From: Escherichia coli
GTDB lineage: Bacteria; Pseudomonadota; Gammaproteobacteria; Enterobacterales; Enterobacteriaceae
Length of the DNA stretch: 64,000 bases
Reading direction: 5' to 3' (one strand)
Assembly: GCF_003790525.1 (NCBI RefSeq)
Contig: NZ_CP033635.1
The position numbers and the translations under genes are program-made. The notes beneath the pieces were generated by a model. The model was not told the origin of the DNA, did not search any database, and saw only the letters and a list, made by a program, of their open reading frames with translations. Positions 1 to 5,054 of the stretch are shown one piece after another. How positions within the stretch are numbered: the first letter of the stretch is position 1; each line of letters begins with the position of its first letter.

Positions 1-1
1 A

Positions 2-484
2 TTGATTGGTTCGCTCTCCGGCGCAGCACCGCCAGTGATCGGCTACTGTGCGGTAACCGGCGAGTTCGATAGCGGCGCAGCAATCCTGCTGGCTATCTTC
101 AGCCTGTGGCAGATGCCTCATTCTTATGCCATCGCCATTTTCCGCTTTAAGGATTATCAGGCCGCAAACATTCCGGTACTGCCGGTGGTGAAAGGCATTT
201 CGGTGGCGAAGAATCACATCACGCTGTATATCATCGCCTTTGCCGTTGCCACGCTGATGCTCTCTCTTGGCGGTTACGCTGGGTATAAATATCTGGTGGT
301 CGCCGCGGCGGTGAGCGTCTGGTGGTTAGGTATGGCCCTGCGCGGTTATAAAGTTGCTGATGATCGAATCTGGGCGCGCAAGCTGTTCGGCTTCTCTATC
401 ATCGCCATCACTGCCCTCTCGGTGATGATGTCCGTTGATTTTATGGTGCCGGACTCGCATACGCTGCTGGCTGCTGTGTGGTAA
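2..484 (+). CDS. cyoE: Protoheme IX farnesyltransferase (heme O synthase), C-terminal part; 5' end lies outside the window
   Basis: Translation is a polytopic membrane protein matching the CyoE C-terminus; stop TAA at 482-484 followed by a terminator hairpin. Confidence 0.9.
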
Positions 485-500
485 TACAACCTCTCTATAA

Positions 501-524
501 AAAAGGTGCTACGGCACCTTTTTT
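501..524 (+). terminator. Rho-independent terminator downstream of cyoE
   Basis: Seen in sequence: stem ggtgc (505-509) / gcacc (514-518), loop tacg, flanked by an A-run 5' and a T-run (519-524) 3'. Confidence 0.6.
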
Positions 525-537
525 ATTGTCTGAGATC

Positions 538-592
538 AGAGATACGGCTAATAACCGTATCTCTTGACAGAGTGAGCATATGCACATAAATT
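538..592 (+). promoter_or_regulatory. Putative sigma70 promoter with overlapping palindromic operator for the toxin-antitoxin operon
   Basis: Perfect 10-bp inverted repeat agagatacgg (538-547) / ccgtatctct (555-564) with 7-bp spacer, abutting a consensus TTGACA (564-569); 17-bp spacer; TAAATT (587-592). A second weaker acgg-N7-ccgt palindrome lies at 599-613. Confidence 0.4.
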
Positions 593-668
593 AATCACAC
601 GGTTGATAGCCGTATTATGCATGAGATCGACTCCCTACGATTTCATTCAGTTAATCAAAGAGGTCATA

Positions 669-980
669 ATGCCTGGAAAAACAGTCGCTCTACCCGATAT
701 CGATAAAACGCTGAAAAATGCGCGGGTTGAACTCAAAACCAGCCCCGACGCCAAAAACAAACTTCGTGAAGCTGCGCAAGCCGTTGGGGTAGATTTAAGC
801 GCTTTTATTTTGAGCGCAGCTATGGAACGCGCCGAAAGTGTGCTTGATAACCAACGTCGCCGTGAGCTTTCGAATCAAAGCTGGGAACTGATGAACCAAC
901 TCATCGCTGAACCTGCTCAACCGACGCTCGCCCTCAAGGCGTTAATGAAAAGGAAAAACAGCGATGGTCGACAAGCATGA
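669..980 (+). CDS. Type II antitoxin, ribbon-helix-helix DUF1778/TacA-like (partner of GNAT toxin)
   Basis: Small protein with the characteristic AFILSAAMERAE segment; ATG at 669 preceded by aagagg (658-663). The ORF track start at 603 is probably an over-extension. Overlaps the downstream toxin by 17 nt. Confidence 0.7.
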   Translation: MPGKTVALPDIDKTLKNARVELKTSPDAKNKLREAAQAVGVDLSAFILSAAMERAESVLDNQRRRELSNQSWELMNQLIAEPAQPTLALKALMKRKNSDGRQA

Positions 981-1506
981 AGAGATTACTCTGCCCATAG
1001 TCCTCTCCTGTAATTATCAGTCTGATATTACTTATCCTGGGCAAAAACAGTTTGATTGCGGTAACCCTGTTATCGATAAATTTGTACGCGCATCGCTAAA
1101 GAAAAGTGTGCGTAATAGCGACTGTGCTGCTAAAGCTCTTATTGACAGACAAAGTGGTGAACTGATTGGCATCTGTACTTTTACGGCATATTCGCTGGAA
1201 AAACAACGCGTTTCTGGCGTCCTTCAGGGTTCACAACCTTCAGAGATTGGTGTTGTCAGATTAGTCATGTTAGGGGTAGCGCGGAAATATCAAAAGCGGG
1301 GCTTTGGTCAGGACCTACTATGTGATTTTTTTGAACATGTAAAAATAATTCACCGGGCATTACCAATTAAAGGGGTTTATCTTGATGCTGACCCTGCCGC
1401 CATTAACTTTTATACTCGCCTCGGCTTTGTTCAGCTTTCAGCGAGGCCCAATGTTTTCGGTGCTGTACCGATGTTTTTAGCGATTCAGCATATTCTCGCG
1501 GCTTAG
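964..1506 (+). CDS. GNAT-family acetyltransferase toxin (TacT/AtaT/ItaT-like, tRNA-acetylating type)
   Basis: 180 aa with the QFDCG motif typical of GNAT toxins, an acetyl-CoA binding signature (QKRGFGQ) and C-terminal FYTRLGF; translationally coupled to the upstream antitoxin. Confidence 0.7.
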   Translation: MVDKHEEITLPIVLSCNYQSDITYPGQKQFDCGNPVIDKFVRASLKKSVRNSDCAAKALIDRQSGELIGICTFTAYSLEKQRVSGVLQGSQPSEIGVVRLVMLGVARKYQKRGFGQDLLCDFFEHVKIIHRALPIKGVYLDADPAAINFYTRLGFVQLSARPNVFGAVPMFLAIQHILAA

Positions 1507-1561
1507 ATTATTATCGCCTCCGGCCAGGGCTAGTTTTGCCTCAGCCGGGGACTGAGCAGCG

Positions 1562-2497
1562 TTACCACTTTTGTTCAATTGCCCCCGCTTTCAGCAACTC
1601 CACATCCTTGCCGTTAATGGTTGCCGTTGCGGCAACGATTGTGGTCCTTACAGTTGCACAAGATTTTCGCTCAAATTCCGGTTTATAAAGAATTAGAGAC
1701 GAATTACTGGTAAATGAATCAAATATGTAATCAGTAAAGCTAATATTCAGCCGGTTTAAACCGAAAGGCGCGAAGCCAACCGTTTGGTTAATCTCCTTAC
1801 CGGATGGGCTACGAATGCTGAATGTCACGCGAAGATTGGCCACTTCGCCTAATTTATTGGTGGTGGCGAAGAGGCTATCCATGCAGGAAAAACCTTTATC
1901 TAAAAAATTATCCCGCATCCCAGAACGGGTAACCGTGATCACGGGTAACGTATCGTCAACCGTTTTTCTGTCAATCATGTCTTTTCGACATGTAGCCAGA
2001 AAGTCTTCCGGACCACCATAAATGTGGACACCTTTATCAAGATATTCCTTCGCTTTCTTACAATCTACCTCAACATACTGACCATTGGCGTACATCATGC
2101 CCAACCTGGACCATGCTAAATTCACACCGTATTGCGCGGCCTGATTAAATAGTGCATACGCTTTGGCATAATCCACCCGCACCAGCTCACCGTCGTAGTA
2201 GATACTCCCCAGCGCTAACGGAGCTTCTCTATCACCGTGTTTAGCGGCTAACTCAAACCATTTAATCGCTTCCTGAACATCAGGTTTGGTATCAAAGCGA
2301 GGCTGATAATATTCCCAGCCTAACAGGCTCTGCGCGTCGACATCTCCCAATTCAGCCATTTTATGCAGTCTATTTATAACATCGGGCGCAGGTTGACCAC
2401 CGTATATGCTGTCATACAATTCATGCGCTTTCTCGCTTGCCACCACGCATGGTGAAACTATTAGCATTAAAGAAAATAATATTCTTTTAGTTAACAT
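1562..2497 (-). CDS. Secreted Sel1-repeat (TPR-like) protein with an uncharacterised C-terminal domain
   Basis: Start chosen at ATG 2497 (aaagg Shine-Dalgarno upstream), giving MLTKRILFSLMLIVSPCVVA as a signal peptide. Several Sel1-like repeats (LGW, LALGSIYYDG, LAWSRLGMMYANG) are followed by a ~140-aa region with no recognised motif. Confidence 0.65.
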   Translation of the reverse strand: MLTKRILFSLMLIVSPCVVASEKAHELYDSIYGGQPAPDVINRLHKMAELGDVDAQSLLGWEYYQPRFDTKPDVQEAIKWFELAAKHGDREAPLALGSIYYDGELVRVDYAKAYALFNQAAQYGVNLAWSRLGMMYANGQYVEVDCKKAKEYLDKGVHIYGGPEDFLATCRKDMIDRKTVDDTLPVITVTRSGMRDNFLDKGFSCMDSLFATTNKLGEVANLRVTFSIRSPSGKEINQTVGFAPFGLNRLNISFTDYIFDSFTSNSSLILYKPEFERKSCATVRTTIVAATATINGKDVELLKAGAIEQKW

Positions 2498-2903
2498 GTA
2501 TACCTTTATGTTCTCTCTGTCATATATTTCCATAATAATTAACCACCAAACATCCATTTAATGAATAAATACAGTACCATAAAGGCCCAAGTAATAAGCA
2601 CACATTTAACCTGAAACATTATCATCGATGTCACCAAATCGTTTATTTAGTGAGATAAAAATAGCATGTTCGCAAGATAAAAAATGCACATAGCAATCAA
2701 GAAATAATATTATTACTTTTGATGTAAAACTATTTAGCTTTAAGAATAATTTTTTCAACATATAGAGCATTCATTTTATGAATGCAAAATAAACATACCT
2801 GACACACAAACTATTCTCCTCTGTAATATTTTCTCATTAACACTCTGTTTACCCAACATGCGCTCCGCACTACACTATGTGGGCATTTTTTTAAGAGGTG
2901 GTA

Positions 2904-4268
2904 ATGAACGATTATAAAATGACGCCAGGTGAGCGGCGCGCGACCTGGGGTTTAGGCACCGTTTTCTCGTTGCGCATGCTGGGCATGTTCATGGTTCTGC
3001 CGGTTCTGACCACGTACGGCATGGCTCTGCAAGGTGCCAGCGAAGCATTAATCGGTATTGCCATTGGTATTTATGGTCTGACTCAGGCCGTTTTTCAGAT
3101 TCCGTTTGGCCTGCTTTCAGACCGCATTGGTCGCAAACCATTAATTGTCGGTGGGCTGGCGGTGTTTGCCGCCGGTAGCGTTATCGCTGCGCTCTCTGAC
3201 TCCATCTGGGGAATTATTCTGGGCCGGGCGCTACAAGGCTCCGGTGCGATTGCCGCTGCCGTTATGGCGCTGCTTTCCGATCTTACGCGCGAACAAAACC
3301 GCACCAAAGCGATGGCGTTTATCGGCGTGAGCTTTGGCATTACCTTTGCCATTGCGATGGTGCTTGGCCCGATCATCACTCACAAACTTGGGCTGCACGC
3401 GCTGTTCTGGATGATCGCTATTCTGGCAACAACCGGCATTGCGTTGACCATTTGGGTTGTGCCCAACAGTAGCACTCACGTACTTAATCGTGAGTCCGGA
3501 ATGGTGAAAGGCAGTTTCAGTAAAGTGCTGGCGGAACCGCGGTTGCTGAAACTCAACTTTGGCATTATGTGTCTACACATGCTTCTGATGTCTACGTTTG
3601 TTGCCCTGCCCGGACAGCTGGCTGATGCGGGGTTCCCGGCGGCTGAACACTGGAAGGTCTATCTGGCGACGATGCTAATCGCCTTTGGCTCGGTCGTGCC
3701 TTTCATTATCTACGCTGAAGTTAAGCGCAAAATGAAGCAAGTCTTTGTCTTCTGCGTCGGATTGATCGTGGTTGCGGAAATTGTGTTGTGGAACGCACAA
3801 ACGCAGTTCTGGCAACTGGTGGTCGGCGTGCAGCTTTTCTTTGTAGCGTTTAATTTGATGGAAGCCCTTCTGCCTTCACTTATCAGTAAAGAGTCGCCTG
3901 CAGGTTACAAAGGTACGGCGATGGGTGTTTACTCCACCAGCCAGTTTCTTGGCGTGGCGATTGGCGGTTCGCTGGGCGGCTGGATTGACGGCATGTTTGA
4001 CGGTCAGGGCGTATTTCTCGCTGGCGCAATGCTGGCCGCAGTGTGGCTGGCAGTCGCCAGTACCATGAAAGAACCGCCGTATGTCAGCAGCTTGCGCATT
4101 GAAATCCCGGCGGACATTGCCGCAAACGAAGCGTTAAAAGTACGTTTGCTGGAAACTGAAGGCGTCAAAGAAGTGTTGATTGCAGAAGAAGAACATTCAG
4201 CGTATGTGAAAATCGACAGCAAAGTGACGAATCGCTTTGAGGTTGAACAGGCAATTCGCCAGGCATAA
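2904..4268 (+). CDS. yajR: MFS-family inner membrane transporter YajR
   Basis: MNDYKMTPGERRATWGLG N-terminus, 12-TM MFS core plus C-terminal soluble domain; ATG at 2904 with aagagg upstream. Confidence 0.9.
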   Translation: MNDYKMTPGERRATWGLGTVFSLRMLGMFMVLPVLTTYGMALQGASEALIGIAIGIYGLTQAVFQIPFGLLSDRIGRKPLIVGGLAVFAAGSVIAALSDSIWGIILGRALQGSGAIAAAVMALLSDLTREQNRTKAMAFIGVSFGITFAIAMVLGPIITHKLGLHALFWMIAILATTGIALTIWVVPNSSTHVLNRESGMVKGSFSKVLAEPRLLKLNFGIMCLHMLLMSTFVALPGQLADAGFPAAEHWKVYLATMLIAFGSVVPFIIYAEVKRKMKQVFVFCVGLIVVAEIVLWNAQTQFWQLVVGVQLFFVAFNLMEALLPSLISKESPAGYKGTAMGVYSTSQFLGVAIGGSLGGWIDGMFDGQGVFLAGAMLAAVWLAVASTMKEPPYVSSLRIEIPADIAANEALKVRLLETEGVKEVLIAEEEHSAYVKIDSKVTNRFEVEQAIRQA

Positions 4269-4305
4269 AAGCGAGGCGAAATTGCCTGCTGCGCTACGCT
4301 TACCA

Positions 4306-4343
4306 GGCCTACAAAGTTCCTGAGTTATAAACCTTTGTAGGCC
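4306..4343. repeat. Inverted repeat between convergent yajR and yajQ (REP-like palindrome / bidirectional terminator)
   Basis: Seen in sequence: ggcctacaaag (4306-4316) and ctttgtaggcc (4333-4343) are perfect reverse complements. Confidence 0.45.
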
Positions 4344-4395
4344 AAATCAGGCGTTCATGCCGCATCTGACATGAACAAAGCGCAGGTTGTCGCGA

Positions 4396-4887
4396 TTAAT
4401 CGCGGAAGTTTTTGAACTGGAACGGCTGACCGAGATCGCCCCCACGTACCATCGCCATAACAGCCTGCAAATCATCACGAGATTTACCCGTTACACGGAT
4501 CTCATCGCCCTGAATTTGCGCCTGCACTTTCAGTTTGCTGTCTTTAATCATCTTGACGATTTTCTTCTGGGTCGCGCTCTCAATGCCCTGTTTCAGTTTC
4601 GCTTCCACAAACCAGGTTTTACCGCTATGAACGATATTTTCCGGTACATCCAGTGAACTGCCTTCAATGCCGCGCTTCAGCAGCTTGGCACGCAGAATAT
4701 CCAGCAACTGATTGACCTGGAAATCGGACTCGCTCAACACTTTGATGGTTTTGCTGGCGTCGTTCAGCTCAAATGAGGCTTCAACATTACGGAAGTCAAA
4801 ACGGGACTCCACTTCGCGGCTCGCGTTATCGACCGCGTTACGTGCTTCCTGAAGATCAACTTCAGAGACAATATCGAAAGATGGCAT
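4396..4887 (-). CDS. yajQ: Nucleotide-binding protein YajQ (UPF0234)
   Basis: [19 protein letters not shown]... matches YajQ; start at ATG 4887 rather than the track start at 5055. Confidence 0.9.
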
Positions 4888-5054
4888 CTTTTCCTCTCCC
4901 TTCATTTTTGATGCGAAGCATAATACCTGCAAAGTTAAATAACCAACAGTCCTGCACCAGGACGTATCCCTTAATTGTGCATAGTCGCAACAGCATGCAC
5001 AATTAAGAGATAGCCTTATTGAACACCCGGAGTGGTTGCGGGTGAGGAGGAACA

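Follow-up and report, generated by a model that had tools for sequence, protein, structure and literature searches.

The window, as we term the whole 64-kb stretch of Escherichia coli DNA analyzed here, carries between cyoE and yajR two genes that lie on the same strand with the antitoxin gene first and with a 17-nt overlap of their reading frames. Both coding sequences correspond to the RefSeq annotation in strain 2D, with which they are 100% identical. The features of this region, together with the analyses on which each is based, are as follows.

497–526, plus strand: intrinsic terminator of cyoE (ATAAAAAAGGTGC / GCACCTTTTTTAT), a 13-nt perfect inverted repeat with a 4-nt loop.
525–2807, no strand assigned: accessory island of ~2.28 kb carrying itaR, itaT and a Sel1-repeat gene, delimited by the break in the alignment with K-12.
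542–560, no strand assigned: predicted operator O1, ATACGG-CTAATAA-CCGTAT (repeat finder, pattern scan and orthologues).
564–569, plus strand: −35 hexamer TTGACA (promoter scan).
587–592, plus strand: −10 hexamer TAAATT after a 17-nt spacer (promoter scan, 10 of 12 matches over 564–592).
597–615, no strand assigned: predicted operator O2, ACACGG-TTGATAG-CCGTAT (repeat finder and pattern scan).
657–663, plus strand: ribosome binding site AAAGAGG of itaR (sequence inspection).
669–980, plus strand: itaR, encoding a ribbon-helix-helix (RHH) antitoxin of the DUF1778/TacA family, the DNA-binding subunit, 103 aa (Pfam and structure matches).
964–1506, plus strand: itaT, encoding a GNAT aminoacyl-tRNA N-acetyltransferase toxin, 180 aa (match to 7BYY and near-identity to the protein of E. 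coli HS).
1562–2497, minus strand: gene for a Sel1-repeat protein of 311 aa, convergent with itaT (PF08238, three repeats, residues 54–155).

Residues 19–96 of ItaR matched the TacA1/DUF1778 family PF08681 (E 1.3e-17), and comparison with solved structures returned KacA (5ZGN, E 3.5e-11) and AtaR (6AJM, E 8.6e-9). ItaT matched the GNAT families PF13508, PF13673 and PF00583, contains the QFDCG motif at residues 29–33 and has both the acetyl-CoA loop Q110-K-R-G113-F-G115 and Y150. These Pfam and structure matches bear out the assignment made in a preliminary description of this DNA, where the pair had been placed in the TacAT/AtaRT/ItaRT class on account of a DUF1778-type antitoxin and a GNAT toxin with QFDCG motif and acetyl-CoA loop. 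The best solved-structure match of ItaT was chain A of 7BYY (E 1.3e-115), which extended over the full 180 residues. This entry is E. coli ItaT(G115D), in which D115 is an engineered inactivating mutation (PMC7367177); the window ItaT has the native G115. No match above the curated cut-off was obtained in NCBIfam for ItaR, ItaT or the Sel1-repeat protein, with only sub-threshold MobA-, MshD- and MerG-like matches. Neither ItaR nor ItaT matched a PADLOC defence model and the Sel1-repeat protein gave one negligible match, so that these models lent no support to classing the island among known anti-phage systems.

The gene order in E. coli HS is identical (cyoE, itaR, itaT, an opposite-strand TPR/Sel1 gene and yajR), and the DNA of the island shares 96.4% identity between the two strains. 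At the protein level, the window ItaT is identical to HS ItaT at 176 of 180 residues (97.8%), differing by R131, T151, R161 and V164, and ItaR is identical at 100 of 103 residues, differing by V6, A7 and I11, all three of which lie N-terminal to the predicted RHH β-strand R19-V-E-L-K23. The promoter, the operator layout and the gene overlap are the same in HS; the differences between the two loci are allelic only. What the window carries here is the chromosomal ItaR-ItaT type II toxin-antitoxin operon itself, present as a minority allele, and its recognition here is a rediscovery of an E. coli system that is already known and characterized. The window allele (at least 99% identity) was found in 86 of ~1370 carriers of the island and is carried at 100% by strain 2D, a blood isolate.

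The function of the HS allele has been described in some detail (Wilcox et al. 2018, PMC6125619; Zhang et al. 2020, PMC7367177). Growth of strain MG1655 stops when HS ItaT is expressed alone, and the arrest is relieved when ItaR is expressed with it (PMC6125619), so that toxicity and rescue assays of the kind proposed in the preliminary description are published for this allele. The two HS proteins form a tight complex that elutes in apparently stoichiometric amounts (PMC6125619). ItaT acetylates Ile-tRNAIle (PMC6125619) and, both in vivo and in vitro, also Val-tRNAVal and Met-tRNAMet (PMC7367177), and it blocks translation through this acetylation of charged tRNAs (PMC6125619, PMC7367177). 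The tRNA target had earlier been called unknown from sequence; that statement was wrong, since the pair is ItaRT proper, found at the same locus and with ~97–98% protein identity. The second study has attributed the preference for Ile-, Val- and Met-tRNA to an aminoacyl pocket formed by V36, I37, F40 and M102, acetyl-CoA binding to G115, the role of general acid to Y150, the dimer interface to L133 and the tRNA-binding surface to K46, K47 and K80 (PMC7367177). The window ItaT retains all four residues of the hydrophobic pocket, as judged at the level of sequence, as well as G115, Y150, L133, K46, K47 and K80. With 97.8% identity and every functionally tested residue retained, it is predicted to be a tRNA-acetylating toxin like its HS counterpart.

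Regulation has also been studied for the HS allele: a 172-bp upstream fragment (−183 to −11) acts as a promoter, which ItaR and ItaT together repress (PMC6125619). ItaR alone did not repress this fragment, and either active or inactive ItaT sufficed in combination with ItaR (PMC6125619). If the numbering is counted from the itaR ATG, in our reading the fragment would correspond to 486–658 of the window and would cover both of the sites described below. The ItaRT operator was not defined in PMC6125619 or PMC7367177, the strings “operator” and “palindrom” being absent from the text of PMC6125619, and a literature search combining ItaR with operator returned no published ItaR operator.

In the window, the arms of O1 extend to a perfect 10-bp inverted repeat, AGAGATACGG (538–547) and CCGTATCTCT (555–564), and the last T of the right-hand arm is also the first base of TTGACA at 564–569, while the core of O1 ends 3 nt before this −35 hexamer. 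The perfect 10-bp repeat fused to a consensus TTGACA that had been noticed at the outset is present. Perfect inverted repeats with arms of 10 bp or longer and a loop no longer than 10 nt occurred in 7 of 5000 shuffles of the segment 527–668. A repeat finder further showed that ACGGCTAATAACCGTAT (544–560) and ACGGTTGATAGCCGTAT (599–615) constitute a direct repeat 55 bp apart. When the entire 64-kb window was scanned for ATACGG-N7-CCGTAT with up to one mismatch, only 542–560 and 597–615 were returned, against 0.04 expected from shuffled sequence. O1 and O2, whose centers are 55 bp apart, bracket the promoter TTGACA-17-TAAATT, from which transcription is predicted to start at ~599–600, within O2. 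A second, weaker palindrome had been reported at 599–613; it is real and lies over the predicted start, but it is the second copy of O1 rather than an independent weaker element.

The comparative evidence came from a search for ItaT orthologues limited to one genome per species. Orthologues sharing 68–89% identity with ItaT, each encoded after an ItaR orthologue, were found in six genera (Pseudocitrobacter, Serratia, Rahnella, Superficieibacter, Buttiauxella and Edaphovirga), and a further copy of itaRT is carried by a 99-kb plasmid of Citrobacter freundii. Matches to E. coli entries of PLSDB that are labelled as plasmids but exceed 1 Mb were disregarded as evidently mislabelled chromosomal sequence. 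In seven out of seven of these other lineages TACGG-N7-CCGTA was present upstream of itaR with zero mismatches, although the surrounding upstream DNA was unalignable, and essentially no other occurrence of the motif was found elsewhere in these ~8.5-kb loci. Six of the seven lineages have two sites 55–60 bp apart, Superficieibacter having one. Alignment of the loci on O1 revealed a common order consisting of O1, 3 nt, TTGAC(N), 17–18 nt, TAnATT or TACTAT, 5–8 nt and O2; TTGAC at 3 nt after O1 was kept in all two-site lineages, whereas the DNA between the elements was not kept. On the protein side, RVELK, the predicted DNA-reading strand, was invariant in all ItaR orthologues.

The closest parallel for these sites is the KacAT system of Klebsiella pneumoniae (5ZGN, 5XUN), which likewise pairs a GNAT toxin with a DUF1778 RHH antitoxin and relies on the toxin as co-repressor. 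The DNA crystallized with KacAT, AAATGTACGGTTATTAACCGTACATGA, is bound by one KacT-KacA2-KacA2-KacT hexamer, whose two RHH dimers read one arm each, with KacA R8, D10 and R12 contacting bases (PMC6698736). The KacAT palindrome (GTACGG-TTATTAA-CCGTAC) and ItaRT O1 (ATACGG-CTAATAA-CCGTAT) share the core TACGG-N7-CCGTA with an AT-rich 7-bp spacer, and the former extends across the kacAT transcription start (PMC6698736), as O2 lies over the predicted start of the ItaRT operon. ItaR R19, E21 and K23 align to KacA R8, D10 and R12. The two systems are nevertheless distant in sequence, with E 1.7e-6 for ItaT against KacT and the value of 3.5e-11 given above for the antitoxins, and their base-reading strands differ (R-I-D-L-R in KacA, R-V-E-L-K in ItaR). 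Furthermore, operator binding is seen with KacA on its own, in contrast to the lack of repression by ItaR alone, and one palindrome is described for KacAT, in the text consulted, compared with the two sites bracketing the promoter in ItaRT. The outer base of the operator is G in KacAT and mostly A in ItaRT. No clean covariation of this base with KacA R12 and ItaR K23 was seen, as either A or G occurs in ItaR-type sites despite the invariant K23.

AtaRT of E. coli O157:H7 (6AJM, 6GTS) and TacAT of Salmonella (5FVJ, 7AK8) belong to the same toxin-antitoxin class, with N-acetylation of aminoacyl-tRNA by a dimeric GNAT enzyme that a DUF1778 antitoxin neutralizes, and in AtaRT the repressing complex is also heterohexameric. 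Both differ from ItaRT in genomic location and show only remote similarity to ItaT (E 1e-5 to 8e-4). Their tRNA targets differ as well, being initiator Met-tRNA for AtaT and several elongator aminoacyl-tRNAs for TacT, according to PMC6125619. In both KacAT and AtaRT it is the toxin that arranges the antitoxin dimers so that they bind with high affinity, and the complex comes off when toxin is in excess; this is consistent with the published lack of repression by ItaR alone. The proposal of antitoxin-mediated autorepression made in the preliminary description holds as far as the operator and promoter architecture is concerned, but in HS it is only the ItaR-ItaT complex, and not ItaR alone, that represses (PMC6125619).

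With respect to genomic context, the cyoE stop codon is at 482–484 and the cyoE terminator, which is also present in K-12, forms the left-hand boundary of the island. Homology to K-12 MG1655 ends at 524 and resumes at ~2808, initially at ~65% identity (significant against shuffles) and then at ~98% from 2894. cyoE and yajR had been described as nearly adjacent in K-12, and in MG1655 they are indeed separated by a gap of 148 bp, in which 11 bp replace the island. The expected strain-specific insertion of ~2.3 kb with a Sel1 gene is likewise confirmed as the segment 525–2807, which has a GC content of 0.427 compared with 0.506 for the window. Across 5426 complete E. coli genomes, which are dimorphic at this locus, ~1372 carry the island, among them E. 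coli HS, BL21, NEBExpress and ATCC 11303. The comparison of the cyoE-yajR junction across genomes that had been proposed showed the module to be absent from K-12 MG1655 and from the other K-12-type junctions, 4051 of the 5426 genomes in total. The possibility that the empty site of K-12 is a deletion scar of the island was rejected in favor of a distinct haplotype, because the junction has 11 unrelated bp and ~90 bp at ~65% identity and is common to 4051 genomes. A deletion scar was seen in one genome only, that of O157:H7 strain TR01, where a clean 2274-bp deletion (562–2835) has left an orphan O1.

The Sel1-repeat protein has an N-terminal segment resembling a signal peptide and is named tetratricopeptide repeat protein in RefSeq. 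In E. coli its gene is always co-present with itaRT, 1367 of 1373 matches covering at least 80% of a 2.4-kb query. Pseudocitrobacter has cyoE and itaRT followed by two Sel1 paralogues, and in other genera itaRT is found in unrelated contexts without Sel1 genes. The Sel1 gene is cargo of the itaRT island.

Taken together, these data suggest the following model. itaR and itaT would be co-transcribed from the σ70 promoter formed by TTGACA (564–569) and TAAATT (587–592), and their 17-nt overlap suggests that translation of the two genes is coupled. ItaT would act as a dimeric GNAT enzyme that is bound tightly and neutralized by ItaR, as shown for HS. By analogy with the KacAT-DNA crystal structure, each ATACGG-N7-CCGTAT site would accommodate one ItaT-ItaR2-ItaR2-ItaT heterohexamer, whose two RHH dimers would read the two TACGG arms. 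With O1 beside the −35 hexamer and O2 covering the start site, the two operators would then jointly exclude RNA polymerase, and an excess of free ItaT would probably loosen the complex from DNA, a conditional cooperativity modelled on KacAT and AtaRT. The proposed stoichiometry, operator binding and conditional cooperativity all follow the pattern of KacAT and AtaRT, systems with antitoxins that show only distant alignments to ItaR, and are to be read as predictions. The operon lies with the Sel1 gene on a single 2.28-kb low-GC island flanked by the cyoE terminator and the yajR promoter. We hold this explanation of the operon, its operators, promoter and island, taken as a whole, to be very probably correct.

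Two other readings of the locus need to be weighed against it, one concerning the toxin and one concerning the palindromes. Compared with HS, the window ItaT carries Q131R, close to L133 of the dimer interface, A151T, which adjoins the catalytic Y150, T161R and A164V. These substitutions, A151T and Q131R in particular, could have reduced or abolished toxicity, in which case the pair would be the remnant of a decayed or attenuated allele. The confinement of all four differences to the last 50 residues would fit such a decay, as would the mostly derived state of the substitutions relative to orthologues, R131, R161 and V164 having been found in no orthologue examined, and the minority status of the allele among the island carriers. 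However, T151 is also present in the Buttiauxella orthologue and all of the residues tested by mutagenesis are retained. Both reading frames are moreover intact, the codon differences between the itaT alleles (13 synonymous against 4 non-synonymous) fit purifying selection, and the antitoxin and both operator sites have been kept. We regard a loss of toxicity on these grounds as improbable, and still less credence is given to the second reading, in which the palindromes are not ItaR operators but a terminator or other RNA hairpin, or else the site of an unrelated host regulator.

For this second reading, it can be said that a terminator scan returned a weak terminator-like hairpin on the minus strand at 615–597 and that the literature search found no report of ItaR binding to these sites. 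Against it, the actual cyoE terminator is a separate element at 497–526, and a scan of positions 1–5000 at Rfam gathering thresholds gave no match. A hairpin or a host regulator would also have to account for a site that accompanies itaR orthologues in seven or more other genomic contexts, one of them a plasmid, that stays in constant register with the −35 and −10 hexamers and that is absent from the rest of these loci and of the 64-kb window. The core is in addition the same as that of the operator bound by the homologous KacA in the crystal structure. This second reading is considered highly improbable, and the sites are treated in what follows as predicted operators of the ItaR-ItaT complex.

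The two alleles differ at five bases within 530–668, and some of these changes fall in the operators. In O2, the window has C598, a single mismatch to the core (at the T of TACGG), whereas HS O2 is a perfect ATACGG; T at this position is invariant in the 15 other sites examined, comprising 13 in the seven lineages and two in HS. In O1, C561 perfects the extended arms in the window, where HS has one mismatch (G561). The window O2 may, given C598, be weaker in binding, and C598 in O2 together with the perfected arms of O1 would shift the set-point of repression. Two heterohexamers on sites 55–60 bp apart could also loop or bridge the DNA, for which KacAT and AtaRT offer no described precedent. 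Since the core TACGG-N7-CCGTA is common to ItaR and the distantly related KacA, cross-regulation among co-resident DUF1778 antitoxins is possible. Cross-regulation, looping or bridging by two hexamers and a set-point shifted by C598 are put forward jointly as a speculative prediction for experiment, one that we think unlikely to hold in its entirety.

As a result of this analysis, a pair annotated in RefSeq and carried by roughly one in four E. coli genomes, including the laboratory B strains BL21 and NEBExpress, can be named ItaR and ItaT, with known targets. The finding of ItaRT at this locus opens no long-standing question, and the operator map holds no surprise. The new element is this comparative map for ItaRT, in which two TACGG-N7-CCGTA sites are predicted from sequence conservation to bracket the promoter. 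The map provides a testable prediction and, through the same core, would link ItaRT regulation to the existing KacAT-DNA structure.

The yajR promoter region (window 2808–2903) showed ~65% identity between island-bearing and K-12-type genomes, as against ~98% for the yajR coding sequence beside it. The sequences at the junction look like two old haplotypes rather than what would be left by DNA newly inserted at a K-12-like site. Clean deletion of the island was seen in a single case among 5426 complete E. coli genomes, that of O157:H7 strain TR01, whose loss of 2274 bp shows that the island can be removed by simple deletion.

L012 (TR01 locus) 3456–3600, island deletion, equivalent to removal of window 562–2835

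At the TR01 junction, CCGTATC (window 561) is fused to ATTAACAC (window 2836). The deletion takes out the -35 hexamer together with all three island genes, and the predicted operator O1 remains as an orphan adjoining the yajR promoter.

In E. coli, the third island gene, encoding a Sel1-repeat protein, always accompanies itaRT; in Pseudocitrobacter two copies of it lie beside itaRT (L004 4595–6319).

Window 1562–2497, - strand, Sel1-repeat protein of 311 aa

The protein has a signal-peptide-like N-terminus and three Sel1 repeats at residues 54–155, and its C-terminal half (~150 aa) gave no family match. The 310 bp upstream of the gene (window 2498–2807) contain no ORF of note and have a GC content of 27.7%, which would fit with silencing as horizontally acquired DNA; this segment may be a promoter or regulatory region of the Sel1-repeat gene.

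In the allele carried by the window, position 598 is C, a position occupied by the T of TACGG in 15/15 other operator sites examined (13 from seven other lineages and two from E. coli HS). This allele also has C561, with which the extended arms of O1 become a perfect 10 bp. C598 and C561 together may alter the repression set-point. The region between the second operator, O2, and the itaR start codon is longer by ~115–155 nt in Rahnella, Edaphovirga, Serratia and the Citrobacter plasmid; E. coli itaR has no such long leader.

L006 3476–3681, long itaR leader, Rahnella
L009 3473–3681, long itaR leader, Edaphovirga
L005 3519–3690, long itaR leader, Serratia
L013 2800–2967, long itaR leader, Citrobacter plasmid

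In the Rahnella and Edaphovirga leaders a hairpin, GGCGT-AAGAAAC-ACGCC, is conserved, and they also contain a very short ORF (10–12 codons).

The plasmid-borne itaRT copy, from Citrobacter freundii, is 72% identical and retains both operators.

L013 2164–3808, itaRT copy on the 99-kb plasmid pRHBSTW-00697_3

Since a gene annotated as “baseplate protein” lies directly upstream of this copy, its surroundings hint that the setting of some ItaRT family members is a phage-plasmid. The HS-type itaRT island is also present in E. coli B derivatives used for protein expression, and K-12 strains are without it.

H46, BL21 TaKaRa
H86, NEBExpress
H27, ATCC 11303

For work that expresses ItaT or ItaR from constructs in BL21, carriage of itaRT by this strain is relevant.
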